Below are positions 5,081-64,000 of a stretch of DNA of 64,000 bases, one piece after another. Numbering within the stretch: the stretch's first letter is position 1; each line of letters starts with the position of its first letter. This DNA is from Candidatus Kaiserbacteria bacterium (GTDB taxonomy: Bacteria; Patescibacteriota; Minisyncoccia; Phycocordibacterales; UBA2100), in NCBI GenBank assembly GCA_003164215.1, contig PLSR01000017.1, positions 28,656 through 92,655 of the forward strand, read 5' to 3'. The translations under genes were made by a program, and so were the position numbers. The notes under the pieces were generated by a model. It did not search any database and was not told the DNA's origin. It saw only the letters and a list, made by a program, of their open reading frames with translations.

Positions 5081-5101
5081 GGTATTAATGGTTACGCAAC
5101 G

Positions 5102-5154
5102 AAAAAACGCCCAGACACGCACCCGACCGTAAGGTCAGATATGTGTCTGGGCGT
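5102..5154 (-). terminator. rho-independent terminator on the minus strand, downstream of the zinc-ribbon gene
   Basis: Perfect 12-bp stem ACGCCCAGACAC/GTGTCTGGGCGT (5107..5118 and 5143..5154). A run of six A on the plus strand (5102..5107) gives a U-tract on the minus strand. Confidence 0.6.
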
Positions 5155-5214
5155 TCCAGACGATGCTCTTCTAATTGTGGCTCACAGAACTACCTGCGCC
5201 TATTATAGCATGCC

Positions 5215-5493: not shown

Positions 5494-5826
5494 ACCTGCA
5501 TTTTACCACGCAACGGTTTTTATCGAAAAAGCGAACACGCCGTACTGGGCCTTTTCGTGTTCGGTTTGTTCGGTTTTGAAATTAGACCCCGACACACAAT
5601 CCTCAAAATCATCATTCGCGGAATCGCTCAAAAACCCTTACACTGATTGATGACCATGGGTACTTAACCCATGTCGCCGCTTGAAAATCCCAGTACGGTA
5701 TCGCTCCGCCTATTCCGTCGCAAAAATGATAGGGGAATCTCCCGAATCGCTTGGAACCGACCCATACCGGCCCCCATCAGCCGGACATACTATATAGACG
5801 CCAAAAAACCTTGTGATGCTTGACCG

Positions 5827-12946: not shown

Positions 12947-12970
12947 CATCGTTTGTGCTAGCATGACGGC

Positions 12971-43060: not shown

Positions 43061-46000
43061 ATGCGTATCATGAACCGCAGACGTGGCGTTGCTTTCGGCT
43101 GTTGGGCATTAAGCACACTCATTTTCGTTGTCGGCTGTTTTCCAATTTTGGTTGAAGCACAATCCACGGATGTTGGCAGCTTATTGCCATCATGGCTGAT
43201 GGGGACTCCTCCCGCATCCACCGATACTGCCGATCTGCAATGTAGTAGTGATGGAGTCTACACCTGTGACTATCCAAAAATTGAGAATAATCAGCAGTGC
43301 CTTCGCGGCAAAACCTGCGCCGAGGTAAAAGACGGGTGTGTCATTTCCGGCGTGTGCGATAGGCCGAATCACTGCAACGACACGAGTGCCTGTGGCAAGG
43401 CGCCGGAGAAACCTACGGTACCGGTAATGCCGTCGCCTTCGAACTCCGGTATAACGGATACGCCGCAACAAAGTTCGGTCGGTTATCCCCAAAATCAGTC
43501 TTCAGACGTAACGCCGACGCCCGCACAGTCTGCAAGTGTCCCGACGTATGGATCATTAGATACGACGCAGTCCCAGACACAATCGCAACAATCATCGTTC
43601 AATCTATCTACCGACGGAAGTAACTATTCCGCGCCGACGGGGCAGGGTGTAAGTCCACTCACTGATGGCACACTCCAGGACGTATCGACAGTGCCGATAC
43701 CAGTCGATAGCAGAGTACCGCCCCTTTCAGGAGCGCAAGACACTGGAGGATCATCAGAAGGATCGAACGGTGTGTCAACTTTCCCGGTTGAAAATGGCCC
43801 GACGCCACAGCAGGCGGCACCTGCCTCGAGTTGCGGCTTCATCTGCTCCGCTGAGAATACCGTTTCATCGGCTTACAGTGCTGCTGCGAGTTGGATCTCG
43901 AACGAGATCTCTCCACCAGCGCCGACTGTTCCAAGCGATGCTTCGCTCAATAGCGCTCAGGCCCAGATCGATACTCCTCAATACTACGATCCGAACGCTG
44001 CAACCACCCCTGACGGCACACCTGCGATCACCGATGCGACCAAACAGGAGATGGTTCCGCTCATGCAAAACCAAGCAGACAGCATGACGAATGAGATGGT
44101 GCAGAACAATGCGCAGATACTAGCGCTGCAGGATCCGAACAATGGTATGGATCCGAATAGCGCGCAGAATGCAATCCAGGATCTCAATCAGCGGAACGCT
44201 TATTTGCAGGACCAACTCGATAAGGTGAATTCCGGCATCACCGCGCTCAATACGGGCGGACAGCTTTCGCCTGACGTACAACAGCTTGCGCAGACAGTGC
44301 AGGACGGCCAAGGTGCGCGCTCGGCGGTGCTTGACGCCGCTTCCGGCGGTCTTGCACAGGCGAGTGCATCCAATTTCGAAGCCGCAAAGCTCGCGATAAC
44401 TGATCCGAGTCTTTCGAATATTGCGTCCGCCGGAATGCACGCTTTCGAAAGCGGAGCTGACTACCTCGGTTCAGGAGTTGCGAGCCTTGTGAACACAACG
44501 TGTCAGGGAGTCGGCGTTTGCGGCCAATCGCCTGCTGAAGCAGTGGCCGCCTGGGCTGACCCGACTGCATCAAAAGTGAACACGATCGTGGCGGGAACAC
44601 AGCTGGCGGTCATGGCCGCACCATTTGCTGGCGAAGCAGTCGATGCGATCAGAGCTGCCGGAGCTGTCGACACCGGAGTAACCGCCTTTGTTTCGGACTC
44701 CGCAGTTGCGCGCACAATTGCTGATAGTGCAGGAGGTTGGACCGCATCTCTCGAAGCGCCAACGTTCGAAGCGGCCCAGACTACGGGGGGAGTGTACTCT
44801 ATTTCAGATTCTGCAGGTACCTTTGCGAATACAATTACTGACATACCGTCGGCGGCCGAACCACTTCCTGTGGGGGCATCTGCGGCACCGGCAGACGTCG
44901 CCCCAGCAGCAGCTCCCGTCGAAGAATTGTCAGCTGCCCAATTTTCAGATCAGATTGATCCGGCAATTACAGCTGAACTTGAACAAGCTAACGGTGCGGG
45001 TTCAGCACAGACGACGCAACCGGCACCGGAAGCCGCCCCGTCCGATGCGGCGGCTCCTACAGAAGCGGCGACACAAACCGCCCCTCCCATATCACCAACG
45101 TTTTCAGATGCGATGGATTACGTCTCGGCTCAAGCGCAGGCGCTCAAAGAAACCGTCACGGGCGGGATCAGCTCGATCGAGTCCGATATTAGCGACTACG
45201 TCAATTCACAGTTCGGAAATACAGAACCATCTGCGCTTACAGAGACGCCACTGCTCGCTCCCGTTTCAGAGGGGACCTCAAACGCGATGCAAAACGTCAT
45301 TGATCAAGCGGGGCAGCTCAAACTTTCTGCGACTATTCCTGCAGACGTGCCGGCAGGATCTGTGGCGCCCGAAGGAGCCGCACCTGCAGCTACGGAAGCA
45401 CCAGCACCAGCTGCACCCGAAGTATCGGCTCCTGCCGCCGACACTGAATCGTCGGCTGTACCCGCTGCTCCTGCCGCACAATCTACTCAAACCGTTTCAG
45501 ATGCGATCGCGACCGCCTACAATAATGTTCAGAACGACATAATCAACTTCAGCCAAGATATTGGCCAAAAATTGCAAGCATTCCAGTCCACGCTTTCCGA
45601 CGCATTCGGTTCGTCACCGGTTGAAACTGCACCTGGGGCGACAGTGCCATCAGCAGTAGAACCCGCTCCGGCCGCAGGTACCTCACCATCGACACCGGCT
45701 TTGGGTGACCTTTCAGGCGTCAGTGCGGGATCGAACATATCGCTGGAGACTGCGAACGATAATTATTTGATGAGTAGGGTAGTGGCGGGAGGGGTGGTCG
45801 GAGGCGCAGTCACGTTCGCGGCCATTGATTGGAGTTCCGTTTCTGTGCCTGCAACGTCGCCGGTACAGCCGGGTGATGTCGTCACCGAGATAGATCTTCA
45901 ACCACAAACTGAACCAACGCCCGCACCTACTCCTGCGGCAACCCCAGCCCCTGCTCCGACTCCTTCTCCAACTGTTATCGCAGTAGAGTCTGGGCCTGCT

Positions 46001-48991
46001 GCACCGGTGACACCAGTCGTAGCATCTGCGCTCCCAGCTCCATTGCCAACGCCTACTCCCGTCCCGACACCTTCGACCCTTGCCAATCCCGAAATGGTCG
46101 CATTCCTGAATAGTGATAGTCAGTACACTCCTCCGATCGAACCCATTACATCTGGCGAGAAGAATGTCATGACGGCATACCAAGCACCAATTGAGAACCC
46201 TGCATCTCCAGGTGCCGCACCATCGACGTCATACCCAAGTCCCCAAATGGTCTCATTCCTGACGAGCGAGAGTCAGTACACCCCTCCGATCGAACCCATT
46301 ACAGCAGGCGAGAAGAATGGCATGACGGCGTATCAGAATCCCATTGAGAGTGCTCCTGCCGCACCAAGTGGAGCGTCATCGGACCAAACTCAGGCCAAGA
46401 TCAACGCACCCGAGTACTATGGACCGCCGTATGTCCAACCTTCCGCGCCACCTACGCCCACACCAACCGCTATTGCATCGGCGGTTCCTCCGGAAGCGGA
46501 CATGTCGAACGGTTCCGCTCCAACTCCAACCTCCGCGTCGGCGGCATCTTCTCCAGCCCCAACACCCACACCGAGTGCTGCCGCTCCCGCAAGTACTCCT
46601 CCTGCGTCGACAGAAGGATCTACTCCAGCACCGACTCCTACACCTACTCAGACATCCGCCCCAACAGCTGCGCGGGCACCGGCGCCCACGGCGGGCACAA
46701 CGCCGACGCCAATACCGACGGCAACACCCGCATCTACACCTTCACCTGCGGCGACACCTGCTCCTGCAAAAACTCCTGTACCCAATCCGACACCCGCTCC
46801 AAAACCGGCTCCGACAAAATTTGCCCAGGCAATCCCGAACGAATCCGGGAAACCGTTTCAGACCGCCAGTGGTCAGGCGCTCGCCGACGCCACTGGTGTA
46901 GCCTGTGCGGCGATCGGCTGCGATGCGGCGCTCGTGCAAAAAGCACTCGCCGGTGTTTGTTCGACCGAGTCCGGCTGCAACGCACAAGTGCTGCATGTCG
47001 GTAACGGGTATCAGGGATTGTTCCAGGCCGATTCTGTCTCCACAGGGGCCGCGATGACCGCATTGAAGCAGATAGCACAATCACCGAAGCTCTCGACCGC
47101 TCAAAAGGCCCAGATCACGTCGGTCATCAATACGGCACAAGCCCAAATAAATGCGAAACAGGATCCAAATAAAGACTCTGTGCTTGGGGCGTGGATCGGC
47201 GTCGGCTATCAAACGGCCGCTGGTTCATTATCGAAGATCGGTACGGTCACCAACGACCCGGGACTTGCCGCGGCATACGGTATGCTCGCGCAGATCGCGC
47301 CCGATACGTTCTACAATTTCAGCCCTAATAAGCGGATAAGCACGATCAGCGTACTGCATTTACAAGGTAATAATTACTGGATCCCGTTCGGCGCTACGGC
47401 GGCGGATGCGGCACGAGTAATACTCGCAACGGTCGGACAAAAGATCACTACCGGCATAAACTGGAGCGGACAATTTTCTCCGAGCGTGTCATCGGCACCG
47501 AACCCGGCCGCTGCGCCTCCCGCTCCCGCCGCGACACCGCCCGTCACCCGATCTCTTTCAACTCCTCCCCCCGCGCCGACCAAAGTTGCTTCTGGCCCTG
47601 CTCCGGCCGCTTCTGCGCCCCCGAGTTCCGGTCCGTACACAAAAGATAACGTTACGATTGTCGGCGACAGCATCGGGCAGGGGACGTCAGGCTGTTCATC
47701 GGCGGTCGGCACGGCATGTGCCGGGACCACCTTCAAGGGAAATGCGGTGAGCGGTGCGGCGATGGGAGCAATGCTGAAGCAGATCAATGCGTTACCGAAT
47801 GGATCGAAGATCGCGGTCATTGCGGGAACGAATAATTACGGCGAAACGCCCGCTCAGATAGGGCAGGACGTTAAAGCACTGATCGATGCCGCTAACGCAA
47901 AAAATATTCAGATCGTCGCGTGGGCGGGGGCATCGTTAGATCCGAAAAATCCGACACTTGATGTGCAGTTCGCGGCTGCCGATACTGAGGTCAAGAACGC
48001 GCTGCCATCGAATATCCCCTTCGTCGATCTACGTTCGTCAAGTCTTGATCCCTATCGAGATGGCTATCATTACACTGCCGCAGGATATAAAGCGATCGGC
48101 GACATGATCATCGCTCAAGCGAATACCCCTGCATCTGACTCAGGTGTTGCGGTCGCATCGAGTGTTCGGCCAGCCGCTCCCGCTCCCACTCCGGCGGTGT
48201 CCGCTCCCGATGCGTCGTCCGCCCTTCAAGTACCACCACCGGCCGCAACACCGTCAAGCGCCATCGCGGAGGCCTCTTCGGCGTCGACTGCCGACTTTGC
48301 CGCAACAGAACGAGATGTTGCGAGCGCCAAGATACAACTTGGACAAACAAAACAGACGATAACCGCCGACAAATCCCAGCTCGCATCGCTCCAGACGCAG
48401 GAGGCTGCTACCGTGAAGAAAATAGCTGCGTATCAAAACACTGCGCAAGCAACAACCGATCTCTCGTCTGCAAAAGCGGGACTCGATGTATTGAACACTT
48501 TGGGAAGAAGCAAAACGGAGCCGACTGCTGCCGAACTGCCAATAATGACGAGGGCGGCGGCCGCGACCGTTCAGCTCGCGAAAGAGATCGGGGATCCCGC
48601 GCTTTCCGGTCAAATCAATGAGTATGTTACCGCTCTCGCGAACTTAAAAGCGGAACCGTCCTCCTTTACCAAGCTCACTGATCTTTGGGCTGCAGAATCG
48701 AAGGGGGCGGCGCTTGTCACGGCAATATCAACGGCCTTGGACAACACGAGTAAAAATCTTGCAGCGAGCGGGAGCCTCGCGAGTTTACAGACCACATCGG
48801 CGAAACTCGCGACGAACATCGCCAACCTCAATACGACGATCGCTTCGCTGCAGCAAACGGAAGTACAGCAGGTCGCAGAGGTCACGAATATGACCAATCT
48901 GTTGCATCAAAAAGAAGAACTTGCCGCCAGCGCTCCAACGTTGCCACACATATGGAAACCGCCGACAACTCCGTCTGCCACGACCCCGTAA
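43061..48991 (+). CDS. giant (1976-aa) secreted multidomain protein: Cys-rich N-terminal module, long Pro/Ala/Thr/Ser-rich region, lysozyme-like (SLT/VirB1-type) transglycosylase domain, SGNH/GDSL hydrolase domain, C-terminal coiled coil
   Basis: Signal peptide. Ten Cys at about aa 60-110. Internal ~40-aa duplication (PEMVAFLNSDSQYTPPIEPIT(S/A)GEKN...). CSTESGCNAQVLHVGNGYQGLFQ matches the ES...GLxQ transglycosylase core (nt ~46850-47450). SGNH blocks GDSIGQG, GAAMG, GTNN and DGYHY (nt ~47640-48110). Heptad-rich tail. All antisense ORFs inside are compositional artefacts. Confidence 0.85.
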   Translation: MRIMNRRRGVAFGCWALSTLIFVVGCFPILVEAQSTDVGSLLPSWLMGTPPASTDTADLQCSSDGVYTCDYPKIENNQQCLRGKTCAEVKDGCVISGVCDRPNHCNDTSACGKAPEKPTVPVMPSPSNSGITDTPQQSSVGYPQNQSSDVTPTPAQSASVPTYGSLDTTQSQTQSQQSSFNLSTDGSNYSAPTGQGVSPLTDGTLQDVSTVPIPVDSRVPPLSGAQDTGGSSEGSNGVSTFPVENGPTPQQAAPASSCGFICSAENTVSSAYSAAASWISNEISPPAPTVPSDASLNSAQAQIDTPQYYDPNAATTPDGTPAITDATKQEMVPLMQNQADSMTNEMVQNNAQILALQDPNNGMDPNSAQNAIQDLNQRNAYLQDQLDKVNSGITALNTGGQLSPDVQQLAQTVQDGQGARSAVLDAASGGLAQASASNFEAAKLAITDPSLSNIASAGMHAFESGADYLGSGVASLVNTTCQGVGVCGQSPAEAVAAWADPTASKVNTIVAGTQLAVMAAPFAGEAVDAIRAAGAVDTGVTAFVSDSAVARTIADSAGGWTASLEAPTFEAAQTTGGVYSISDSAGTFANTITDIPSAAEPLPVGASAAPADVAPAAAPVEELSAAQFSDQIDPAITAELEQANGAGSAQTTQPAPEAAPSDAAAPTEAATQTAPPISPTFSDAMDYVSAQAQALKETVTGGISSIESDISDYVNSQFGNTEPSALTETPLLAPVSEGTSNAMQNVIDQAGQLKLSATIPADVPAGSVAPEGAAPAATEAPAPAAPEVSAPAADTESSAVPAAPAAQSTQTVSDAIATAYNNVQNDIINFSQDIGQKLQAFQSTLSDAFGSSPVETAPGATVPSAVEPAPAAGTSPSTPALGDLSGVSAGSNISLETANDNYLMSRVVAGGVVGGAVTFAAIDWSSVSVPATSPVQPGDVVTEIDLQPQTEPTPAPTPAATPAPAPTPSPTVIAVESGPAAPVTPVVASALPAPLPTPTPVPTPSTLANPEMVAFLNSDSQYTPPIEPITSGEKNVMTAYQAPIENPASPGAAPSTSYPSPQMVSFLTSESQYTPPIEPITAGEKNGMTAYQNPIESAPAAPSGASSDQTQAKINAPEYYGPPYVQPSAPPTPTPTAIASAVPPEADMSNGSAPTPTSASAASSPAPTPTPSAAAPASTPPASTEGSTPAPTPTPTQTSAPTAARAPAPTAGTTPTPIPTATPASTPSPAATPAPAKTPVPNPTPAPKPAPTKFAQAIPNESGKPFQTASGQALADATGVACAAIGCDAALVQKALAGVCSTESGCNAQVLHVGNGYQGLFQADSVSTGAAMTALKQIAQSPKLSTAQKAQITSVINTAQAQINAKQDPNKDSVLGAWIGVGYQTAAGSLSKIGTVTNDPGLAAAYGMLAQIAPDTFYNFSPNKRISTISVLHLQGNNYWIPFGATAADAARVILATVGQKITTGINWSGQFSPSVSSAPNPAAAPPAPAATPPVTRSLSTPPPAPTKVASGPAPAASAPPSSGPYTKDNVTIVGDSIGQGTSGCSSAVGTACAGTTFKGNAVSGAAMGAMLKQINALPNGSKIAVIAGTNNYGETPAQIGQDVKALIDAANAKNIQIVAWAGASLDPKNPTLDVQFAAADTEVKNALPSNIPFVDLRSSSLDPYRDGYHYTAAGYKAIGDMIIAQANTPASDSGVAVASSVRPAAPAPTPAVSAPDASSALQVPPPAATPSSAIAEASSASTADFAATERDVASAKIQLGQTKQTITADKSQLASLQTQEAATVKKIAAYQNTAQATTDLSSAKAGLDVLNTLGRSKTEPTAAELPIMTRAAAATVQLAKEIGDPALSGQINEYVTALANLKAEPSSFTKLTDLWAAESKGAALVTAISTALDNTSKNLAASGSLASLQTTSAKLATNIANLNTTIASLQQTEVQQVAEVTNMTNLLHQKEELAASAPTLPHIWKPPTTPSATTP

Positions 48992-53334: not shown

Positions 53335-54330
53335 ATGTTCGTAATGTACCGAGCACATTTCATACGTGGAGGTCAAACGATGTTCTTTGAGAATATACTC
53401 AAAACATCAGGGTTCTCGATGGAGACACTCGCACAGTTATGTAACGTAAGCGTGCGTACCATACGGGACTGGAAGCGAGAAAAGTATCGAGCGGAATATG
53501 ATGCAGTTATTTTTTTAAGTAAAAAATTTCATACTAAAACAGGTACGATCAAAAAAGTTGATATACGTGAGCATCTTCTCTCGGTAGCTTCCTCGGGTGG
53601 GATGGCTCGCTATGAACGATATGGCCCCGTGAGTAGCCAGGAAGATAGAAAAAGAGGCGGCAGAATATCTCAGTCACTGCGTCGTTCTAGCCCGCAGAAG
53701 TATCGTCTACTCGGTTGTAACGTTCGAAAAGATTTCAAAAACCCGAAGTATTCGGAGAAATTTGCCGAAGTTATCGGAATCTTATTGGGTGACGGGGCAC
53801 TCAATGATTATCAGGTGCGCGTCACACTTAGTAAAACGGTGGACAGAGAGTATGCGCACTTTGTCCGCGTACTTATGCGAGATGTATTTGGTGAGAATCC
53901 GTCATGGCGGGAGCGTCATAATGTTATCGAGATCACGCTATCAGGTGCCGCGCTCGTTGAAGTGCTAGAGAATCGGGGATTGAGACGCGGCAACAAAGTG
54001 CGTCATCAAGTGGATATACCAAAGTGGATCTTTACAAATAAGAAGTACCAGCGGGCGTGTCTACGAGGGTTGTTTGATACTGACGGCGGCATCTATCGAC
54101 ATAAGAAAGAAAAACGCACCTACGTCGGGTGGTCTTTCTCGAACCATTCCCGCCCTATCATTAAGGGAGTGATGGATATATTATACGCACACGGCATTGC
54201 AAATTCTCTGCAAAATGAGACAAAAGTGTACATATACTCGTTTGCCGATATAATGAGGTATATGGAGGTTGTGGGTTCACATAATCCGAAAAACATGCAG
54301 AGAATAGTCGGTGCTAGATCAAAGTTTTGA
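53335..54330 (+). CDS. free-standing double-motif LAGLIDADG homing-endonuclease-like protein with an N-terminal HTH
   Basis: Two LAGLIDADG motifs, IGILLGDGAL and LRGLFDTDGGI, about 100 aa apart. N-terminal HTH-like METLAQLCNVSVRTIRDWK. Ends 8 nt before tRNA-Ser. Confidence 0.65.
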   Translation: MFVMYRAHFIRGGQTMFFENILKTSGFSMETLAQLCNVSVRTIRDWKREKYRAEYDAVIFLSKKFHTKTGTIKKVDIREHLLSVASSGGMARYERYGPVSSQEDRKRGGRISQSLRRSSPQKYRLLGCNVRKDFKNPKYSEKFAEVIGILLGDGALNDYQVRVTLSKTVDREYAHFVRVLMRDVFGENPSWRERHNVIEITLSGAALVEVLENRGLRRGNKVRHQVDIPKWIFTNKKYQRACLRGLFDTDGGIYRHKKEKRTYVGWSFSNHSRPIIKGVMDILYAHGIANSLQNETKVYIYSFADIMRYMEVVGSHNPKNMQRIVGARSKF

Positions 54331-54337: not shown

Positions 54338-54422
54338 GGAGAGATGCCTGAGTGGTCTAAAGGACACGCTTGGAAAGCGTGCGTGGGGCAACCCACCGAG
54401 GGTTCGAATCCCTCTCTCTCCG
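54338..54422 (+). tRNA. tRNA-Ser (anticodon GGA), class II with a long variable arm; CCA is not encoded
   Basis: GGAGAGA acceptor stem pairs with TCTCTCC. Anticodon stem-loop cACGC-TTGGAAA-GCGTg. T-arm GAGGG-TTCGAAT-CCCTC. Discriminator G. Confidence 0.88.
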
Positions 54423-54498
54423 CCCGTAGTAGTTTTTATCGGTGCTATGCTGAGCCCCTCGGCTGTTGTGTACACCATGAAGTAGTCATAGAATCCAG

Positions 54499-55536
54499 TT
54501 GATGGCATCTAGAAAGAAATCCAAGAGGAAATATCTAATATATCTCGATAAGGGTATTCAGGCGCTTCTCTCTGCCATAGACAGGATCAATAGTGTCCAC
54601 GACCCCTACCGGGTCGAGCAATCCTTGATCCTAGCCACTAATGCGTGGGAGCTGTTGGCCAAAAGTATTCTTTTAAGGGACAAGGTGAATATCCAGTATG
54701 CTGATGGTCGCACAATATCTGCCGAAGATGCTCTGACAAAATTGGTCTCCAGCGGATACCTTACCGAGAATCAATCGCAACATATTCAACAGATCATTTC
54801 TTTGCGAAATGCTGCTGTCCACTCGGTGTTGCCACATACGCCCGATGAAATTCTCTTTCATCTTCAATTTTATTCGGTGAAATTCTTTAAAGATCTGGTC
54901 TCCAAAGAATTCCCACCCTACGCGAAAAAGTGTAATGGTAATTTTATTTCGATAAGTTTCGACACGTTTACCACATATGCCGATAAGGTACAAAAGTTAG
55001 TAGCACGAGCAAGAAAACGAGGAACTCCCGAACAAGAACTCATGTGGTTGCTAGAGCGAGGTATTAGATTCAAGGGAGGACAATACATGTCGCAGACAAA
55101 ATTTGAAGACGAACTAAAAAAACTTGGACCAAGACGACGTCTCTATCATCATCTGAAGGTTTCTGATTTTATCAAAGATGCTCACATGGTAGTGGTTGTG
55201 CCAGTCCAAGCTCCGAAGGGCTACACCGCAGATATAAACCTTAGAAAAGGTCAAAATAAGGCTGGATCAGCACTGCCCGTTATGATTAAGAAAACGGATA
55301 TCGAAGAAGACTATCCTTATCTAACATCAGAACTCGGAAGACAAATTGGGAAGGGTACGAACTTTGTGGCTCATTCATTGCAAAAAATGAACGCGAAAGG
55401 AAATCCAACCTATCATCAGGCGGTCAGGTCCTCCAAGTCTGGAATGATTAATAGGTATTCACAAAAGGCATTGGATCTACTGAAGGATGCACTGAGCAAG
55501 GATCCAACTTATACACCCTTTCGGAAGAAGATTTGA
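54499..55536 (+). CDS. HEPN-like N-terminal domain protein with an uncharacterised C-terminal domain; candidate defence effector
   Basis: The N-terminal ~130 aa are helical with an Rx4H motif (LRNAAVHS) at the end of the last helix, as in HEPN. Located between tRNA-Ser and the serine recombinase. Confidence 0.5.
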   Translation: MMASRKKSKRKYLIYLDKGIQALLSAIDRINSVHDPYRVEQSLILATNAWELLAKSILLRDKVNIQYADGRTISAEDALTKLVSSGYLTENQSQHIQQIISLRNAAVHSVLPHTPDEILFHLQFYSVKFFKDLVSKEFPPYAKKCNGNFISISFDTFTTYADKVQKLVARARKRGTPEQELMWLLERGIRFKGGQYMSQTKFEDELKKLGPRRRLYHHLKVSDFIKDAHMVVVVPVQAPKGYTADINLRKGQNKAGSALPVMIKKTDIEEDYPYLTSELGRQIGKGTNFVAHSLQKMNAKGNPTYHQAVRSSKSGMINRYSQKALDLLKDALSKDPTYTPFRKKI

Positions 55537-55623
55537 GAGCGGATCGTCGGTGGTGACTCCATTGGTGACATATCGCACCGGTAGGTGGTGGCGAACCTTT
55601 TTACCAAGGAGTACCATCGAAGC

Positions 55624-56658
55624 ATGCCTCCCTGCATATACTGCAAAACAGAAAACTTTGAAAAATTCAAAGGGGTCGAGCACGTCATCCCACAAGCTTT
55701 TGGTAAGTTCGGAGCCAAGACACCGACGCTTAAATGCGTATGCGACGACTGCAACACCTTCTTTATGAAGGAACTTGATCAAGTTCTGGCACGAGAGACC
55801 CTAGAAGGGGTCACCCGCTATAAGAAAGGAATCTACTCGCGCGAGGCACGTCCGCAAACAAAATTGAAGTTCTCCCTTGCAGAATCTCCGGAAATCGGAG
55901 ACTTTCACGGTGCCATGATAGCTGTTGACGGTACAACTGGGAAATTGATGTCGCCTCCGGCTCAATACAAGATTTTGAACAAGTTGACCGGCAAATACGA
56001 AATCTATCTGGAACACCAGCTCAAGGATTTAAAAGTCACCGATGAAGTGTACGGCAAGCCAGGCGAGCGCGAGATCGGTATCATCGCGCCCTCCAGTGAG
56101 GCGCTCGATACGTTCATAAAAAAACTGAACGAGACTGGAATACCCTACAAGGAAAAGGAACGTTATCAGCCGCCATTCGTGAAGGCAATGGAGAGAATGC
56201 CTGACGATGGCGTTTCAACTCTAGAGGTTACAGTCGACGGCAAGATCGACGATCCGGTAAAGCGCGCGGTTGTAAAAATCCTTTTTAACTTCGCTACCTA
56301 CAACCTCGGTCCCGCTGAAACGTTGAAAAATGAATGGGATGCGGCGCGGAGTTTTATTCGGTTTACCGGAAAGACACTTATGGGGCGCGTCTCACAGAAG
56401 CCGTTTTGGGACGGGCAAGAGACCGAAACGATGCGCTTCTTGGACGACAGTTACAACTTGCGTATTGAGAATCAAAATGGGAATGTCGTCGGTGTTCTCC
56501 AGTTCTACAACCTGTTCACATATGAGTTTATCTTGGTCGAGGGGTATCAGATTCCACCGGAGCATGAAATAGCATATCGCTTCACTCCTGGAAAAGAGCC
56601 GATCATTGGGCGGAAAATGACTAAGTTGGAATATCTAAAGATGCAGCTGCCGGAATAA
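55624..56658 (+). CDS. HNH-endonuclease-domain protein with a ~270-aa uncharacterised C-terminal domain
   Basis: CIYCKTEN...EHVIPQAFG...CVCDDCN gives an HNH core (CxxC ... H ... CxxC). ATG at 55624 is preceded by AAGGAG. Confidence 0.6.
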   Translation: MPPCIYCKTENFEKFKGVEHVIPQAFGKFGAKTPTLKCVCDDCNTFFMKELDQVLARETLEGVTRYKKGIYSREARPQTKLKFSLAESPEIGDFHGAMIAVDGTTGKLMSPPAQYKILNKLTGKYEIYLEHQLKDLKVTDEVYGKPGEREIGIIAPSSEALDTFIKKLNETGIPYKEKERYQPPFVKAMERMPDDGVSTLEVTVDGKIDDPVKRAVVKILFNFATYNLGPAETLKNEWDAARSFIRFTGKTLMGRVSQKPFWDGQETETMRFLDDSYNLRIENQNGNVVGVLQFYNLFTYEFILVEGYQIPPEHEIAYRFTPGKEPIIGRKMTKLEYLKMQLPE

Positions 56659-57990
56659 TTACTCGATCGTCACAGCGCCATTGTTGACTTTGAAGTTCGA
56701 CTTAAAGCACCCCATCAGCTCGCGCTTCTCCTCGTTGGTGCCCTCCTTGAGGATGTACTTTGCATACGTCCTGATATTGATCTCCTCATGCTTTGCATCG
56801 GGATCTGAGAGACCAAGTACGGTGCGCTGGAATTTATTGTGCCGTTTCAATTCGTCCTCGAATTTCATCTGCACGTTGATCTGGTTGATATCGATCTGAT
56901 CGATAATCTTGAGCAGTTGCTCTACGAGTTCCTCCTCACGCAGATACGTATTGCCTTTGCACTGTTTGTCACGCGTACGTCCGCATCCGTAGTAGACGTA
57001 ACGAGCGGTCGTGCCATCCTTGCGCTGCTTGTACTTTTCCTCAGCGCTGATGCACGATCCGCACTTGCCGCACGTCATGAGTTTCGTGAAGGCAAACTCG
57101 TGCGATTCCCGCTGTATGTTGTCTCGCTTGAGCTGTGCCTGCACCTTTTCGAATAATTCCTTGGGCACCAATGGTTCGTGCTTGCCCTGATACCAGTTGC
57201 CGCTATTTCGCGGATACTCAAATATGCCGTGGTAGAAGGGATTGGAGAGAATGCGGTACATATTGCCGAGCGAGAGCGGTTTCTTACCTTGTGTCTGAAA
57301 GATTAGTTCGAATCGGAGCCAGTGATACAATCGCGGCCCTGACCATTTTTCATACCCGACTTTCTCGAACATCTTCCGTATCACCGGCCCGCGATCCGGA
57401 TCGATGATGACCTCGCACTTCCGGTCCATTCGCCGTTCGTTGAGATATCCGGTCAACGTGCTTCCGGGCCGCAGTCCCATCTCGCAGCGCGTTCTAAGTC
57501 CTCGCTTTACGTTTACGCCGCGATTGTCGTTCTCGAGTTTTGCCTGACTCCCCAGAATCATCAGGAGGAACTTCTCGTTCGGGTTATTACGGAACGACTG
57601 GCTATACGTACGGATCTCCATGAGTACTCCCGCGTCCATGAGATCGATGACTTTCCCGAGGTCGCCAGCGTTGCGTGAGATGCGATCCGGTGCCCATGTC
57701 AGTATCGCGTTGAACTTTCCCGTTTTCATTTCATCGACGATCTCGTTGAAGACGGGACGCTGCCCTGCTTCTTTGGCTGAGTGGCTCTCGCGCTTCATCG
57801 CGACGATCTCGAGCCCTTCGCGCTCCGCGAGTTGGAGCATCTCCTTGATCTGGGAATCGATGGAGAGCACCTGCCGCTCCTCGCTCTCGGTGCTCTTGCG
57901 AGCGTAGAGGCAAAACTTGAGCGGCACGATCTTCAATTCCGGTCTCCCGATCTGCCCTCCGGGGAATGGTCTCTCGATGACGTTGTCCAT
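56659..57990 (-). CDS. large serine recombinase (integrase)
   Basis: Catalytic domain YARKSTESEERQVLSIDSQ (Ser nucleophile), recombinase domain and a C-terminal zinc ribbon (CGKCGSCISAE...YYGCG). Confidence 0.85.
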   Translation of the reverse strand: MDNVIERPFPGGQIGRPELKIVPLKFCLYARKSTESEERQVLSIDSQIKEMLQLAEREGLEIVAMKRESHSAKEAGQRPVFNEIVDEMKTGKFNAILTWAPDRISRNAGDLGKVIDLMDAGVLMEIRTYSQSFRNNPNEKFLLMILGSQAKLENDNRGVNVKRGLRTRCEMGLRPGSTLTGYLNERRMDRKCEVIIDPDRGPVIRKMFEKVGYEKWSGPRLYHWLRFELIFQTQGKKPLSLGNMYRILSNPFYHGIFEYPRNSGNWYQGKHEPLVPKELFEKVQAQLKRDNIQRESHEFAFTKLMTCGKCGSCISAEEKYKQRKDGTTARYVYYGCGRTRDKQCKGNTYLREEELVEQLLKIIDQIDINQINVQMKFEDELKRHNKFQRTVLGLSDPDAKHEEINIRTYAKYILKEGTNEEKRELMGCFKSNFKVNNGAVTIE

Positions 57991-58073
57991 ATGCTTGTGG
58001 TATTTAGCTGCTACATCACAAGCAATGCCGCAACCCTCGCCACAAGTCTATTGAATACAAGGAGGTAACTATT

Positions 58074-59546
58074 TCACCATTCAGCCTCGAAAAGGCGAGC
58101 AAATTCGGTCTGGTAGTGCGTCTCGGTTTCTCCGGTACTCGACTCTATATCACTGAGTGAAATCTCTACCGTATCCGTCATGTCGAGTATGAACGTATGA
58201 TTCTCACGTAGCGCGTCTATGTTGTTCTCCACCGCGATCCGGACCTGACTATTGAGCAGTCTGACGCTGTTTTCGAGATCATCGATATATGTATTGATGC
58301 GTCGCCCCACGTCTACTTCATAGATACGCGATAGCCGCGTGAACATGTCTCGGAATGCGAGGAGCGCCGCGTATTCTCGCAAGAAGCTCTGTCGGTGCAG
58401 GAAGACGAGAAACGCTCCGGTCGGACGCAGTGCATCGATCTGCGCCTTGAACTCGTTCACGAACGGAAGATCGCTCGGGCAGTAATAGATGCTCTCGCCG
58501 GTGAGTGTCCGTACAATCTCCGACATTCCCCATATTGAATGAGGTCTGTCTTCAAGCGTAAGGTGGCCTGCTGTGATGAGTTTTTGCATCGCTTCAGTCG
58601 CGTCATTCTTTGCTCGCATCCATGCACTGAAAACTTCCTTGTGAGGATGTTTCGTTGTTGCATCGTTGCAAGTGTTCTTATGCGAACTCATACAGAGGGG
58701 TTCGTATTCATCTACAAAAAGCCCCTCATCAAGCCATCGCAGCACCGTGCGGCGAAGTACTGCCCGTATATCTTCGTGGCGGGTCTTGGTGGATGTGTGG
58801 AATTCTTGTATCAGCGCGTCATCATCGACAGCAGAAATCCCTGCGTACTGCGCCCATTTTTCCAGTATCGCCATGTGCGGCATGCTTGCGAAGTACCCTT
58901 GAAAGTACCATTGGTGACTTTCGAGACCCGCTTTTTCAAACGCGTCAGCATACCTGTTGTGCAGATCGTCGACGATTGCCGTCACAAGTTTCTGCTTCGC
59001 TTCGGTACTCAGTGATGCAGAATTGTCGAATGCGTTCGCGAGCAATTCCTCTTGCGTCAGGTATTCAGTCTCGGTTTCCGCATCGGGATACAGTGCAAGG
59101 ATATCTTGTCGTTCTGATTCGCTGAGATTTTGGAACGCCATCGTATAGACCGTACGGTCATATGGAAGACCGCTCTGTTGCAGCAGGTACTCAAGCGCCT
59201 CATTCTCGTCAATATGGAGTATCTTTTCTTTCGAGCCAGTGCGGATATGGGCGAGGTATCCCATGATTGCGAGTGACCGATACAGCGAAATCTCAGCATT
59301 GAGATACGTCGTCTGCGCGTCGAGTCGCGCGTGTAGCGCCGTATTCCAGCCACTGTTGTACTTGTTGTATTCCTGCGCTTCGTAATTATTGGCAGGTCTC
59401 CATCCTTCGCTGATCGCGTGCTTGTCTGCGGGCGTGAGGATGTCAGCGCCGCCAGTATCTTTCGCGCAATCGTTTTGCACTAAGAGCAGAATGCGCTGCT
59501 TCGGGCGCAAGGCGTTGGTACTCAGTAATTTGGTGAGGTCTTTCAT
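58074..59546 (-). CDS. hypothetical protein of the mobile element, with no P-loop
   Basis: ATG at 59546 (MKDLTKLL) sits 4 nt after the upstream gene's stop. Occupies the position that terL has in the paralogous left-end module but lacks Walker motifs. Confidence 0.5.
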   Translation of the reverse strand: MKDLTKLLSTNALRPKQRILLLVQNDCAKDTGGADILTPADKHAISEGWRPANNYEAQEYNKYNSGWNTALHARLDAQTTYLNAEISLYRSLAIMGYLAHIRTGSKEKILHIDENEALEYLLQQSGLPYDRTVYTMAFQNLSESERQDILALYPDAETETEYLTQEELLANAFDNSASLSTEAKQKLVTAIVDDLHNRYADAFEKAGLESHQWYFQGYFASMPHMAILEKWAQYAGISAVDDDALIQEFHTSTKTRHEDIRAVLRRTVLRWLDEGLFVDEYEPLCMSSHKNTCNDATTKHPHKEVFSAWMRAKNDATEAMQKLITAGHLTLEDRPHSIWGMSEIVRTLTGESIYYCPSDLPFVNEFKAQIDALRPTGAFLVFLHRQSFLREYAALLAFRDMFTRLSRIYEVDVGRRINTYIDDLENSVRLLNSQVRIAVENNIDALRENHTFILDMTDTVEISLSDIESSTGETETHYQTEFARLFEAEW

Positions 59547-59550
59547 AATG

Positions 59551-59760
59551 TTATCGTTTCTTGAGCGTCTGCTCGAGAAGCTCGATGCGTGCCTTGAGTT
59601 CAGCCGTCTCAATGCTTTTTACCAATGCGGTCGCCACGCGGGAAAGAGCAAGCGCTTGCCGCAGGGTAATCTTTCGATTCTTGAGGTCGTGCATGGCCTG
59701 TGAAAGCAGTATTGTCACTTCCGCGGGAGTCAGTGATTTTGTGAGTAATTCGTGTTCCAT
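59551..59760 (-). CDS. small coiled-coil protein
   Basis: 69 aa, tightly packed between neighbouring genes. Confidence 0.4.
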   Translation of the reverse strand: MEHELLTKSLTPAEVTILLSQAMHDLKNRKITLRQALALSRVATALVKSIETAELKARIELLEQTLKKR

Positions 59761-59772
59761 ATTGATGTGCGG

Positions 59773-60156
59773 TTATATGCCTTCTCCGTACTCAAGCCAC
59801 AGCCGTACATCGCTTGAGTGCGGATTTTTAACAATCTTTTTGAGTAATGATCCGAATACGAGCGGGGTCATCGAACGCATCCATGCGCGTGTATCATCAA
59901 GCAGTCCGTCGCGGTCGATCCTCACGTTCCATTCAGTGAGCGTGCTTTCATCAACGCTGTATCGCTCTGCAAATGCCTTTTGCGATTTGATCTCAAGCAG
60001 GTCTTGCATGCTCTCATCAAACCCCATCTTTTCGAGCGACTGGCGCGGCATGTCGCGGTAGCTTGGCGGCAGCGCTCTCCATTTGAGATACGTCTCGAAT
60101 TCACGTGCCTTGTACGCGCCACGTCCTCTGTTTGGTGGTGGTACGGCATCGCTCAT
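59773..60156 (-). CDS. small-terminase-like / phage HTH protein
   Basis: KSQKAFAERYSVDESTLTEW resembles the terminase small-subunit HTH. ATGA overlap with the methyltransferase gene. Confidence 0.4.
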   Translation of the reverse strand: MSDAVPPPNRGRGAYKAREFETYLKWRALPPSYRDMPRQSLEKMGFDESMQDLLEIKSQKAFAERYSVDESTLTEWNVRIDRDGLLDDTRAWMRSMTPLVFGSLLKKIVKNPHSSDVRLWLEYGEGI

Positions 60157-60902
60157 AGTTTTCGCGCGACAAGTCCGGTGAGCTTCTCCATACGCGCTAT
60201 TGCAATTCCCGCGTACGCAGGATCAATTTCTATACCGATACACCTTCGACCGAGGTGCTCGCAGGCGACGGTGGTACTCCCGCTGCCTAAGAAGGGGTCA
60301 TACACGTAGTCTCCGAGGCGCGTCGAGTTTGGTATTAATTTGCGCAGGAGTCCTATGGGTTTCTGTGTCGGATGAAGTTTCGATGCAGCTGGTTTTGGGT
60401 GGAAGAGTATGCTTTTTGCTTTGCTGCGTTCCATCTTGTGCTTACCGCACCAGCCGTATGCGATGAGCTCGTGCATGGGCAAATAGTCCTTCCTGCCGAG
60501 GACGACCGTATTCTTGATCCATATGAGGCCTTGAGAGTAATAGAATCCGGCGTCCTTCATGCCTTGGCGCAGCGCGGGGTACATAAGATCGCTGTTGAAG
60601 ATGTAGCAGGCATTGTACGGCTCTAGGTGCGGCTTTACCGCCTCGAGCCACGCTCCCGTGAAGCGAGCGTATTCCTCGTCGGATTGCAGCTGATCGCCGA
60701 TGATCGCTTTGTCCGTATTCACGCCCAGCTTGTTGAAATCTCGCTTGCCCTCGACGTAGGAGACGGCGTACGGGGGATCAACGAGAATGCATCTGATCTT
60801 TTTGTCTCCAATGACCTTACTCACGAATGTCGCATCGAGCGAATCGCCGCACGCGATGATGTGCTCACCGACGGAGAAGATATCTCCTTGCTCGACGCTC
60901 AT
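60153..60902 (-). CDS. N6-adenine/N4-cytosine DNA methyltransferase (orphan, phage-type)
   Basis: Motif IV DPPY (ILVDPPYAVSY) and motif I FLGSGSTTVA. The C-terminus RMEKLTGLVARKL is near-identical to the left-end methyltransferase tail. Start ATG at 60902 overlaps the upstream stop (ATGA). Confidence 0.8.
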   Translation of the reverse strand: MSVEQGDIFSVGEHIIACGDSLDATFVSKVIGDKKIRCILVDPPYAVSYVEGKRDFNKLGVNTDKAIIGDQLQSDEEYARFTGAWLEAVKPHLEPYNACYIFNSDLMYPALRQGMKDAGFYYSQGLIWIKNTVVLGRKDYLPMHELIAYGWCGKHKMERSKAKSILFHPKPAASKLHPTQKPIGLLRKLIPNSTRLGDYVYDPFLGSGSTTVACEHLGRRCIGIEIDPAYAGIAIARMEKLTGLVARKL

Positions 60903-62188
60903 ATGAGTGTCGCGCGTTGGTTGGTAAAGGACTCCCACCGGTCGATGCAGACGGTGGCGAAGATCGGATCGATCTCGACACCCCGCCACTTGCGATTGAG
61001 CTGTTCGCATGCGATGAGATCGCTTCCACTACCGGCAAAGCCGCTGAGCACGATGTGTCCCGGAGCACTGCAACGCTTCAGTGGCTTCTCGTTGAGCGCG
61101 ACCGGCTTTTGAGTCGGGTGCTGATATGATTGCGCGTTATCCCTACGTGCCAGCCAGAGATTGAATATGTCGAGGATTTCCTCGTGCACCTGATTACCTG
61201 ATCCGATCTCTTTGTTCAGAAGCTCGTTGGTATTGCGCAGTTCGCTATTGAGATACGGCTTACCGAGAATGCCGTACACGCACGGCTCGTATGCCTTGTT
61301 GAACGCGACCTGCGGAGTCATGTTGAAGTTGTTCTTGATCCACAGGCAGACGCGTTTGTTGTCGATGCCATTTTCTCGATACAGCGATTGCAGGAGCCAT
61401 ATGTACTTCTCATCGCACCAGTAGAACAGGTGCGCGTTCGGCTTTGCGACAGCAAGTGCGGCTTTCATGCTTGCATCGAGAAACACGCCGAATGCGGCAT
61501 CTTTTTTGGAATCTTTGGCGCTCGTATAGGTTCCTTCGTATTTGCCACCCGTACTGATCCCTTTTGAGTAATCGAGTCCGATGTTGTAGGGGCTGTCACA
61601 GTACACGACATCCGCCAGATCCGTATCCATCAGTTTCTTGACCTGTTCGGCATCGGTCGAATCGCCGACGAGAAGACGGTGTTTGCCGAGCTGCCACAGT
61701 TCACCCGGTTTTACCCGAGCAACCTTTGTCTCCTTGAGCGCCTTTTCGACGTCGAAATCGTCCTCGATTACGTCAACATCATCGAAGATCGTTTGCAGTT
61801 CCTCATCCCCGAAACCGACGTCGAGAAGTAGATCCATATCCATCGCTTTGAGTAATTCCTCATCCCAGCTGCCCGTATTTTGATTACTGCGCAGCAGATA
61901 TTCCTCGCGCTCAGTTTCGCTGAGGGCTCGATTGGGCACGCGCACGTCGATCTCTTCCTCGCCGCGTCCGGCAAGCTGCATCGCTTTCAATCGTTGATGC
62001 CCAGCCAATATCGTGTTATCAGTATCCACTACAGGTATCTCGACGAGATTGAACCGCGCGATGCTTTCTTGCAGATTCCGCATCTGCGATTCACTCATCT
62101 TGCGCGGGTTCTTCGGGTGACCGATGAGCTGGCTAATGATGCGCTTTTCCGTTTTCCATGTGAGATTCGTTTTTGTTACTTTTTTCAT
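60899..62188 (-). CDS. ParB-like N-terminal domain fused to a DNA methyltransferase (paralog of 3731..5080)
   Basis: ParB-N (ILAGHQRLKAM). Methyltransferase motifs DSPY (VVYCDSPYNIGLDY) and FAGSGSDLIA. Confidence 0.8.
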   Translation of the reverse strand: MKKVTKTNLTWKTEKRIISQLIGHPKNPRKMSESQMRNLQESIARFNLVEIPVVDTDNTILAGHQRLKAMQLAGRGEEEIDVRVPNRALSETEREEYLLRSNQNTGSWDEELLKAMDMDLLLDVGFGDEELQTIFDDVDVIEDDFDVEKALKETKVARVKPGELWQLGKHRLLVGDSTDAEQVKKLMDTDLADVVYCDSPYNIGLDYSKGISTGGKYEGTYTSAKDSKKDAAFGVFLDASMKAALAVAKPNAHLFYWCDEKYIWLLQSLYRENGIDNKRVCLWIKNNFNMTPQVAFNKAYEPCVYGILGKPYLNSELRNTNELLNKEIGSGNQVHEEILDIFNLWLARRDNAQSYQHPTQKPVALNEKPLKRCSAPGHIVLSGFAGSGSDLIACEQLNRKWRGVEIDPIFATVCIDRWESFTNQRATLI

Positions 62189-62381
62189 GCATTGGTCATT
62201 ACGATTCTAATGACCTGTGCTTTGAGGGGGTGGTGACAGCAAAAAAAACCGCCAACGCCCGAGCAAAGCTCAGGCTGTTGACGGTCCTTTCTCTCGACCA
62301 TCGTGGATACCGCGCAGGTATCTATATGTTTATATTATATAAGACAGGGAGAAACCCCGCAAGGGTCGGATCTATGGAATA

Positions 62382-63914
62382 TCAAGGTAACCAGCCCCAA
62401 TCGACCTGTCGCTCAAGGTCCTCGTCACACTTCGGACATTTTGCGCGAATCGTAAGGCTGCCGTACGTAAGCTCTATGATAAAAGGAGCCTTGTTTAGCA
62501 TTCGTCCACTGAGGGTATTGCTATGAACGAACTTGCATATGACCGCATGGCAGTGGGGGCATTTCCATTCAGCGTCCTTCGTATTATCCGGAAGTTCTTT
62601 TTTCTCCCTGACGCACTCATCGCAGATTGTAGGCTGTGATTCGAAACCGTGGCGATTCGAGTCTGTATGCAACTGGATCGGCCGTTTGCGGCAGATCTTA
62701 CAAAACGCGAGTCGTGTTGACGAGACAGCTCCCCAGAATTCGCGCTCTTTTTCCTGACATGCACGCGCGTGAGCGGTAAGCCGCTTCGACTCCTTTTGAA
62801 ACAGTTTCATTCTCTCTTGCTGAGACACAACGGGGTGTTGCGCCCAAAAGGTGTGATTGAAATGCTTTGGCATATCCCATGCCGCAGTGGTGATGTTACG
62901 CAGTTGTGTGCCGACAGTATGGTACACCGTCGACAATGCACGTTGGATCTCATTGATGCGATAGTCGATGACGTCTTCGATTGTCTCCCATTCTTCCGCA
63001 TCTTGGCGTTGCAAACGCCATTGGTCAAAACGTGTCTTTGAGATATCGTCGAGTTGATCGCGCTGTACGCCGTGGTTTTCGCGAATACGGTAGCTGCCGC
63101 CGTAACTGCGGTCGCCGTATCGCTTTTTGAAGTCGTCTAAGTCGGTCACGACCTTGGTGAGGGATGCACGGATTTGTGCAGTATCGTATTTACCGTTACC
63201 TCGAATGCGACTCCATGCTTTAAAGCCGTCAATGCTATGTCGCATCGCCTGAACATCCGTGCCGTGCAAATATTCTGTCCGTGGAGTGAGATATCCGCCT
63301 CCGAGCTCTCCCGCTGCGAGTTCGAGGAGGGGCTTGGATTCTTCGCCTGTCACTCGTTCCCAGACGTCAGTAATCAGGTCGTAGATTTTATAGAGCTTTT
63401 GCGCGACTCGCGCGTCGCCCTTGAGGAAACTCTTCTTTGAATTCGGGTGCCGGTTGATGTAGTAATACCAAAGCTCGAGCGGATCAATAATGGCCGCGGC
63501 CTGAGCGACATGTGTCCTCAAGAAAGTGAGCTTCTTCGCATCAAGCCGGTACTGCTTTAATTCTTCGGGAAGCGAGACGACCGCCGACAGGTCATGATTG
63601 AATGTCGCAACGCTCTCAAACATGTCACTTTCATCAATCGGCATTTTGTACTTGTCTTTCAGTGGCGTTGTGTGGATGAAGCGGAGAAGGGCATCGAAAG
63701 TCGCTGTGAGTAGATACGGATTGAACAGAACATCATCACTCTTTTTACGTGCCGGATCATTAGCATCTCTTACAAGGAATGCCATTCCCGAACCCCATGC
63801 AATGTATCGAGGCCTTTCCTCAATCGGTTTGTCTGGATACGACTCGACACTTCCGGGATCCCACAATCGGCCATTTAGAACGATATTTTTACGCAGCTGA
63901 GTGACTATGAGCAA
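62382..63914 (-). CDS. hypothetical phage-like protein with a C-terminal multi-zinc-ribbon region
   Basis: 510 aa. C-terminus CDECV...CPHCH...CPKCDED. The ORF may extend beyond 63914 toward the window edge. Confidence 0.45.
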   Translation of the reverse strand: MLIVTQLRKNIVLNGRLWDPGSVESYPDKPIEERPRYIAWGSGMAFLVRDANDPARKKSDDVLFNPYLLTATFDALLRFIHTTPLKDKYKMPIDESDMFESVATFNHDLSAVVSLPEELKQYRLDAKKLTFLRTHVAQAAAIIDPLELWYYYINRHPNSKKSFLKGDARVAQKLYKIYDLITDVWERVTGEESKPLLELAAGELGGGYLTPRTEYLHGTDVQAMRHSIDGFKAWSRIRGNGKYDTAQIRASLTKVVTDLDDFKKRYGDRSYGGSYRIRENHGVQRDQLDDISKTRFDQWRLQRQDAEEWETIEDVIDYRINEIQRALSTVYHTVGTQLRNITTAAWDMPKHFNHTFWAQHPVVSQQERMKLFQKESKRLTAHARACQEKEREFWGAVSSTRLAFCKICRKRPIQLHTDSNRHGFESQPTICDECVREKKELPDNTKDAEWKCPHCHAVICKFVHSNTLSGRMLNKAPFIIELTYGSLTIRAKCPKCDEDLERQVDWGWLP

Positions 63915-64000
63915 TTGAAGCGGGCTGTAGTAATCGACGATCCCATTTTGAACACTCCCGTCTAGCTGCCGTACAGGGCCCTCTGCTGAATACAGCGGAG

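Follow-up and report, generated by a model that had tools for sequence, protein, structure and literature searches.

Phage-inducible chromosomal islands (PICIs) and the pathogenicity islands of Staphylococcus aureus (SaPIs) are elements of about 10 kb (the criterion being 10-15 kb) that carry a site-specific integrase at one end and use a specific attachment (att) site, lack structural and lysis genes, possess their own homologue of the phage small terminase subunit and keep accessory or defence genes beside the integrase (criteria as in PMC6092414). The window analysed here, a stretch of 64,000 nt from a Candidatus Kaiserbacteria genome, contains a block of genes, starting at the 3' end of its only tRNA gene, that shares these traits and whose relatives also carry regulator and primase/helicase modules; on balance it is probable that this block is a PICI-like phage satellite, an integrative element of approximately 10 kb with a satellite behaviour that we infer from the traits just listed. 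The likeness has its limits, since the element uses a large serine recombinase (LSR) where PICIs and SaPIs use a tyrosine integrase, shows no divergent repressor-integrase arrangement, has in the window copy no recognisable pri-rep module, replication origin or master regulator, includes two orphan DNA methyltransferases (MTases) in its core and resides in a different phylum (Patescibacteria). Two of its core proteins, named p69 and p490, showed no relation to Cpm, Ppi, Sid or TcaP in any test run, and whereas the helper phage and the induction of PICIs and SaPIs are known, the present element is known from its sequence alone.

The tycheposons of Prochlorococcus, of which 27 out of 937 use a large serine recombinase and in a PICI-like subset of which terS or a capsid gene is present (bioRxiv 10.1101/2020.12.28.424599), are likewise integrative elements associated with tRNA genes and possess a site-specific integrase as well as replication genes and cargo; they belong to another phylum, no common hallmark genes were detected, the five-gene core described below has no reported counterpart in them, and cargo and a small-terminase homologue are found together in one element here. 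PLE of Vibrio cholerae is a satellite with an LSR that needs a separate directionality factor (PMC9638900), and it resembles the window element in LSR-mediated integration and in the lack of capsid genes. Unlike the latter, PLE inserts in superintegron repeats rather than at a tRNA gene, its helper (ICP1) and its hijack proteins are known, and it shows no similarity to the window element in sequence or gene order. The recombinases of phiC31, Bxb1 and CcrAB of the staphylococcal cassette chromosome (SCC) share with the present LSR the Resolvase, Recombinase and zinc-ribbon architecture, and, as in these systems, no long flanking direct repeats were found here in the element and the 570 bp that follow the window; their targets are protein-coding genes or rlmH whereas the target here is the 3' end of a tRNA gene, and the window element is neither a phage nor an SCC. 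Full-text literature searches returned no paper on satellites or serine-recombinase elements in Patescibacteria.

The block lies to the right of tRNA-Ser(GGA) (54338-54424, + strand), the single tRNA that ARAGORN reports in the window, a host gene whose 3' acceptor/T-arm end would contribute the attachment site's bacterial half (B arm). Two cargo genes on the plus strand come first, a DUF3644/HEPN-like protein of 344-345 aa (54499-55536) and, paired with it, an HNH_5 nuclease-domain protein of 356-357 aa (55585-56658). Then follow, all on the minus strand and from left to right, the LSR (443 aa, the integrase of the element, 56659-57990), the all-helical hallmark protein p490 (58074-59546), the small helical protein p69, always immediately upstream of p490 (59551-59760), the helix-turn-helix (HTH) protein p127 (59773-60156), a 249-aa MTase of the N6_N4_Mtase type with a DPPY motif (60153-60902), a ParB-N::MTase fusion of 429 aa (60899-62188) and X600, a protein of 600 aa with C-terminal CxxC zinc ribbons (62382-64000, where the window end cuts it). 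The layout was derived from an open reading frame (ORF) listing and family scans, and the products were confirmed by public gene calls on the same contig. Gene content and order to the right of the tRNA thus agree with those first described from the DNA letters alone (hereafter the earlier note). The "six-gene minus-strand operon with ATGA overlaps" of that description is correct as to the operon, with two such stop/start overlaps (ParB-N::MTase/MTase and MTase/p127), and needs amendment as to its extent, the minus strand holding seven genes with the LSR co-directional and downstream; the "510-aa" protein at the edge was an artefact of the window, the gene encoding 600 aa and starting about 184 bp beyond it (start codon at ~64184). 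The stop codons of the LSR and HNH genes abut (TAATTA), and promoter and terminator scans scored no better than shuffled sequence. The host part has a GC content of 54.3% and the element one of 50.4%, with 42-48% in the cargo genes (42.4% in the DUF3644 gene).

No protein of the element matched capsid, portal or large-terminase families in Pfam and PHROG scans, as had been stated from the start for capsid and large terminase, and no lysis or structural families were found among the Pfam and PHROG matches of these proteins. Relaxase, coupling-protein and type IV secretion families were likewise absent from their Pfam, NCBIfam and PHROG matches, where X600 and p490 could hold novel functions. 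The size of about 10 kb, the lack of structural genes and the presence of a small-terminase homologue fit the earlier proposal of a satellite or PICI-like element rather than a complete phage.

The small-terminase homologue is p127. Its family was found on six IMG/VR contigs, one of which (L040) is another copy of the cassette while the other five are phage contigs (L041-L045; IMGVR_UViG_3300028298_000459, _3300028299_000015, _3300031862_000012, _3300022555_000180 and _3300020036_003361). All genes of these five contigs lie on one strand, and the p127 homologue is located directly upstream of, or overlaps, the large terminase gene (Terminase_3, phrog_2), which in L044 is followed by a portal + Mu-F gene. 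Small terminase genes canonically occupy the slot just before the large terminase gene. The phage homologues are 153-209 aa long with 29-36% identity to p127 (hhalign probability 100%, E 6.9e-40 against the L043 protein). It is from this homology and the position upstream of TerL, and not from a curated family, that p127 is taken as a small-terminase homologue, and the label "small-terminase-like" initially given to this 127-aa protein gains weight from the five phage contigs. PHROG "head and packaging" and PDB profiles gave no match to p127, and neither p127 nor its phage-contig homologues were found in GenBank phages. As for the two enzymes encoded upstream, both are, judging by their domains, ordinary beta-class N6/N4 MTases: the 249-aa protein matches PF01555 (5e-30) and phrog_498 (1.1e-60) and its gene has ATGA overlaps on both sides, and the fusion matches PF01555 (4e-21), phrog_498 over its full length (7.3e-89) and the ParB-like phrog_620 over residues 11-152 (8.2e-23), Pfam ParB_N being recorded on its orthologue in the sister locus L006. 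A ParB-N domain on orphan methylases is common in phages and plasmids.

The LSR contains Resolvase (PF00239, 3.1e-19), Recombinase (PF07508, 9.2e-13) and Zn_ribbon_recom (PF13408, 9.4e-7) domains and matches the phrog_95 integrase (3.5e-58); its best NCBIfam similarity is to CcrB (3.4e-32), at 112 bits against an equivalog cut-off of 900 bits. Comparison of related copies demonstrates, at the level of sequence, that the element moves between genomes as a unit and site-specifically, with its junction in the last bases of the tRNA. In a Kaiserbacteria metagenome-assembled genome (MAG; L003, also L036), the block from the ParB-N::MTase to the recombinase is 95.7% identical to the window over 5670 bp, adjoins tRNA-Ser(GCT) instead of tRNA-Ser(GGA) and has a 425-aa gene in place of the DUF3644 and HNH genes; the identity ends exactly at the recombinase stop codon and resumes for 62 bp at the tRNA end. 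A 90% relative (L037) is located at tRNA-Ser(TGA), with a reverse-transcriptase gene in the cargo slot and a Type I restriction-modification (R-M) system divergently upstream of the X gene. Two other MAGs (L006 and L007) have a common 9.8-kb sister element, 99.9% identical, between right flanks that are 69-78% identical and left flanks that are unrelated. Here the shared sequence runs out within the 3' strand of the tRNA-Ser(TGA) acceptor and the T-arm differs between the two hosts, which indicates that the tRNA belongs to the host and that the junction lies within its last ~10 nt. Additionally, the flanks are non-syntenic across 12 GTDB loci, whereas the same gene order in synteny in all related genomes without the tRNA junction had been named beforehand as the pattern of a non-mobile region. 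The original proposal, that beside tRNA-Ser there lies a mobile element integrating by means of a serine integrase, is sustained by these near-identical copies, which occupy different genomes and contexts and have their junctions at the tRNA 3' end.

Two contigs considered as excised circles (L002 and L009) were rejected, both being integrated-form contigs without terminal overlap. Upstream of the Kaiserbacteria copy in L036 lies a pile-up of related remnants (1339-6199) with a truncated serine recombinase and a reverse-transcriptase gene, 86% identical to the L037 end, and with two extra element arms (4121-4170 and 6163-6199), the second of which stands beside a degenerate tRNA 3' end; remnants and extra arms suggest tandem or serial integrations.

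The ends of the element were approached through a second assembly and through the sister copies. The window is identical to ENA contig k141_434040, which stops 570 bp past the window. In the second assembly (WOOD18-1, sample SAMN07125045), scaffold_876 terminates at window position 54426, 2 nt past the tRNA, and the separate scaffold_39827 (10,023 bp) corresponds to window 54372-64394, so that both ends of the block coincide with breaks in this assembly. The 62 bp that are 90% conserved between the window and L003 despite different adjacent cargo consist of the final 29 nt of the tRNA and the next 33 nt, and an arm N7-TTTTTATCGG directly follows the tRNA in independent copies (the window, L037, L006/7 and L054). 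In the orientation of the tRNA, the sequence that follows it is CCGTAGTAGTTTTTATCGGTGCTATGC in the window, nearly identical in L003 and L037, and ACACAACTTTTTATCGG in L006/7, with variants in L054 and L031; a conserved arm beside unrelated cargo marks the end of the element. The left junction (attL) is accordingly placed at 54422-54457 (+ strand), where CCGTAGTAGTTTTTATCGGTGCTATGC is the element-side arm and 54422-54423 the putative GC core.

The opposite end of the L006/7 element was mapped at TGCGGGCCATGTGAGTTAAGTACCCAG by comparison of the two genomes, and TGCGTTTTGAGATTACTGAACCAG, which resembles this mapped left end, occurs at position 165 of L001, the contig of the window (window position 64406), 12 nt from the stop of scaffold_39827; the regular expression for the right end was designed post hoc from its two matching sequences, and its uniqueness is not independent evidence. 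By this analogy and from the assembly break, the right junction (attR) would fall at ~64394-64406, outside the window, and the element would measure ~9.98 kb (54424 to ~64404), its far boundary being some 400 bp beyond the window in agreement with the earlier note. Both P-side ends close with ...CGCA and the tRNA with ...CCGCC, for which reason we propose, on three junction pairs, that the core is GC (G73-C74 of the tRNA). The host sequence past the far end starts with AAAAAA in the window and in L007 alike. A search for a direct repeat of the tRNA 3' end found none, either within the element or in the 570 bp that follow the window. Such a repeat, suggested at the outset as the form attR should take, suits tyrosine integrases, and its absence is expected of a serine integrase. 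The proposed attP would read ...CTCAAAAC-GC-CCGTAGTAGTTTTTATCGG..., and the LSR would recombine it with the end of the tRNA gene at the GC core, an insertion that would leave the tRNA intact and produce no long repeats; the predicted empty site is ...GGTTCGAATCCCTCTCTCTCC-GC-AAAAAAGAGTCAGATCCC... and the predicted circular junction ...GCTGGTTCAGTAATCTCAAAAC-GC-CCGTAGTAGTTTTTATCGGTGC....

Two further observations concern the attachment region of relatives. In L007, a 19-nt exact direct repeat of the 3' end of the host tRNA-Ser(TGA) (5770-5788) is located 158 bp beyond the left boundary of the element as mapped; it is not accounted for by the present insertion and may be the scar of an earlier event. 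In a subgroup associated with tRNA-Asn and tRNA-Gln, a longer recombinase ORF (577-608 aa) reaches or enters the tRNA 3' end (in L015, recombinase 11610-13343 and tRNA-Asn 13304-13377; similarly in L019, L062, L064 and L131), and a T-loop-like GGTTCGAA motif recurs ~60 nt beyond the tRNA, which suggests that the att site of this subgroup may sit within the 3' end of the integrase gene.

Homology searches identify the block as one copy of a widespread, hitherto unannotated element family of the Patescibacteria (candidate phyla radiation, CPR). The p490 family comprises 47 clusters at 90% identity, and 258 at 50% identity among 1.84 billion representatives, none of them functionally annotated. 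Among GTDB species representatives 23 loci contain it, and almost all of these bear a Patescibacteria label (Kaiser-, Adler- and Taylorbacteria, Minisyncoccia, Paceibacterota and "Saccharibacteria"). The core order ParB-N::MTase, MTase, p127, p69, p490 is kept in every sufficiently long locus (23 GTDB species), and the neighbouring genes are not common between the genomes that carry it. In most loci the LSR follows the core directly or past 2.5-7 kb of cargo; 21 distinct loci bear an LSR, and in 16 of them a tRNA is located just beyond, with its 3' end facing the recombinase (tRNA-Ser with four anticodons, Leu, Asn, Gln and His). R-M enzymes, AbiEii-type ATPases and diversity-generating retroelements are recurrent neighbours, and capsid, portal, tail and tyrosine-integrase families did not recur among the neighbours of 12 relatives; additionally, 1.1 Mb of family loci contained no TerL or portal of the type found in the p127 phages. 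A first IMG/VR scan with p490 patterns was negative, a pattern-limited false negative since L040 carries the cassette. This contig of 28 kb, classed as viral in IMG/VR, holds the whole cassette and two serine recombinase genes, with no structural genes in the 20 kb examined.

The AlphaFold model of p490 (pLDDT 88.5, pTM 0.75) is almost entirely helical and had no match in PDB or BFVD by Foldseek. Judged against these two collections, the model would represent with confidence a new fold tied to mobile elements. Searches of BFVD, GenBank phages and the phage contigs L041-L045 did not find p490. The idea that the 490-aa protein might prove to be a portal, replication or primase homologue received no match in any test run, Foldseek against PDB and BFVD included, and the roles of portal, terminase, primase and Rep were rejected on the structure and sequence tests run. 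Its partner p69 is called in public assemblies and conserved in all loci, and has no significant match in PHROGs, Pfam or PDB; it can be aligned to the C-terminal domain of a 124-aa zinc-finger protein that precedes the p490 homologue on a class of circular mini-elements. Five such contigs came from a metagenome scan (L061, L077, L110, L119 and L124; circular, 7.3-9.7 kb, terminal overlaps of 127 or 55 nt). They have one gene order on one strand, starting with a MerR-type HTH protein and an HTH_17 excisionase-like protein, followed by the 124-aa zinc-finger protein (C-terminal half similar to p69), the p490 homologue (540-594 aa) and a protein of 370-410 aa, and ending with a DnaG-type primase, in some cases a DnaB-like helicase, a PC4-like ssDNA-binding protein and a tyrosine integrase; methylases and p127 are absent. 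This order matches the integrase / AlpA-MerR / pri-rep layout of PICIs (PMC6092414). The occurrence of p69 and p490 in both classes makes the pair a common hallmark of two kinds of small integrative element, at least one of which (the tyrosine-integrase type) exists, to judge from the terminal overlaps, as free circles. Further contigs belong to the circular class (L066, L101, L120 and L083), and some others are wrap-around duplicates.

The slot upstream of the core is variable. It holds X600 in the close relatives of the window copy, L015 has an AAA_25 helicase there and L016 an NrS-1-type primase-polymerase, and a distant subgroup has an HTH_3 protein and an ImmA/IrrE protease upstream of the core. 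X600 itself matches only zf-4CXXC_R1 (1.5e-4, C-terminal zinc ribbons), and its 12 homologues all reside in sister elements; it had no match among Pfam, NCBIfam, PADLOC and PDB sequences and no relatives in IMG/VR, and its AlphaFold2 model was of a quality (pLDDT 54) insufficient for fold searching. An insert resembling a diversity-generating retroelement (an RVT_1 fragment and bAvd) lies between X593 and the ParB-N::MTase of the 95.7%-identical sister element (L003 4532-7000, L004 1582-4050, L036 11850-14318), and RVT_1 and bAvd genes recur near other family members.

The cargo pair is, from its domains, a candidate anti-phage defence module. The DUF3644 protein matches PF12358 (1.3e-17) and DUF4145 (7e-4), with a weak HepT match (1.6e-4) and an RNAAVH sequence that corresponds to the Rx4H motif of HEPN domains; over residues 8-137 it matches PADLOC PDC-S19 (PDLC04951, 1.8e-22), and six further PDC-S19 models match it as well. 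The HNH_5 protein (PF14279, 6e-8; weak matches to the HNH of PtuB) is absent from L003. In sister elements the DUF3644 gene is swapped for other genes, the same slots being occupied by R-M systems of Type I and Type ISP, by GmrSD and by retroelements.

Under the satellite reading, the element would after excision replicate via the upstream X gene or its analogues, the two orphan MTases would shield its DNA from restriction, and p127, probably with p69 and p490, would direct this DNA into the capsids of a helper phage, as in the PICI/SaPI lifestyle; the cargo genes would benefit the host as anti-phage defence.

A number of observations weigh against this reading, several of which would suit instead a mobile defence or cargo island that has a serine integrase, is not a satellite and spreads by natural transformation or another route. 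In such an island p127 would be a phage-derived HTH regulator or directionality factor, and the MTases, p69 and p490 would serve self-protection, maintenance or exclusion. All the evidence of mobility applies to it equally, and its cargo slots hold genes of defence type. p127 lacks the C-terminal extension of 30-80 aa of the phage proteins, matches no curated small-terminase family in Pfam or PHROG (best hit HTH_Tnp_1_2, E 0.15) and might just as well be a regulator that binds DNA or a recombination directionality factor, a factor that LSRs need and for which no other candidate was identified; the phages that bear its homologues have no host assigned. p490 is found in none of the phages searched, neither p69 nor p490 has an assignable function, and the window copy has no repressor and no primase, helicase or other replication gene recognisable in Pfam and similar scans. 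Five distant relatives have no recombinase within 10 kb, and the sole IMG/VR contig with the cassette (L040, IMGVR_UViG_3300000970_000154) looks chromosomal. Metagenome contigs yielded no packaged or circular form of the LSR type, and for this type no helper phage, induction, excision junction or encapsidated copy was observed. Regarding the attachment sites, neither an empty site nor a circular attP junction was recovered, the core and the right boundary being proposed by analogy and from a break in the assembly, and the P and P' arms compared by eye show no convincing inverted symmetry. On the other hand, p127 is homologous over its full length to a protein known solely from a position directly upstream of TerL, it is strictly conserved beside p69 and p490, whereas variation would be expected of a regulator, and relatives of the element add ImmA-type regulators that resemble helper sensors, together with replication genes, as satellites do. 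An island of this sort is in our judgement rather unlikely.

Two other accounts are much harder to reconcile with the family as a whole. A decayed prophage, that is, what remains once a temperate phage has lost its structural genes, had been raised in the earlier note and would agree with the serine integrase, with a ParB-N::MTase of a kind common in phages, with the small-terminase homologue and with a GC content slightly under that of the host. Yet the five-gene core is intact and colinear, in the same order and with overlapping frames, in 23 species-level genomes and dozens of metagenome contigs, the 99.9% and 95.7% identical copies in different genomes reflect recent movement of the small unit itself, no locus joins the core to structural genes and pseudogenes are not evident; we hold such an origin to be very improbable. 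The few distant relatives without a recombinase within 10 kb would be at home in a non-mobile, vertically inherited cluster that merely happens to lie beside a tRNA, an account that is scarcely credible in view of the non-syntenic neighbourhoods, the near-identical copies in diverged genomes beside different tRNAs, the assembly-graph breaks at both ends and the atypical composition. The satellite reading keeps its place as the probable one.

Outside the element, a free-standing LAGLIDADG_3 homing-endonuclease-like gene with an N-terminal HTH (window 53335-54330, + strand) is located immediately 5' of the tRNA-Ser, has a GC content of 44.9%, low for the host, and is present in both assemblies. 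Unrelated to the element, an ORF of 1,976 aa (43061-48991, + strand) with a signal-like N-terminus and long low-complexity stretches rich in Pro, Ala, Thr and Ser probably encodes, by its sequence features, a giant surface protein.

A large part of bacterial diversity belongs to the CPR bacteria, their gene exchange is barely understood and few of their phages are known; to our knowledge, they lack conjugation systems. A tentative and broader proposal, to which we give less than even credence, is that the elements described here constitute the first recognised phage-satellite family of the CPR (Patescibacteria), with an LSR retargeted to tRNA 3' ends and with p69 and p490 as a novel helper-exploitation module (for capsid remodelling or packaging specificity) common to the circular tyrosine-integrase mini-elements. 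p490 and its partner p69 are in any case a good target for functional work, and five uncultivated phages are pointed to as possible helpers. Additionally, serine integrases that target tRNA genes through small defined sites are candidate genetic tools for a phylum that has almost none, and this compact and mobile family offers a concrete vehicle for horizontal transfer and for the turnover of defence genes in CPR bacteria.

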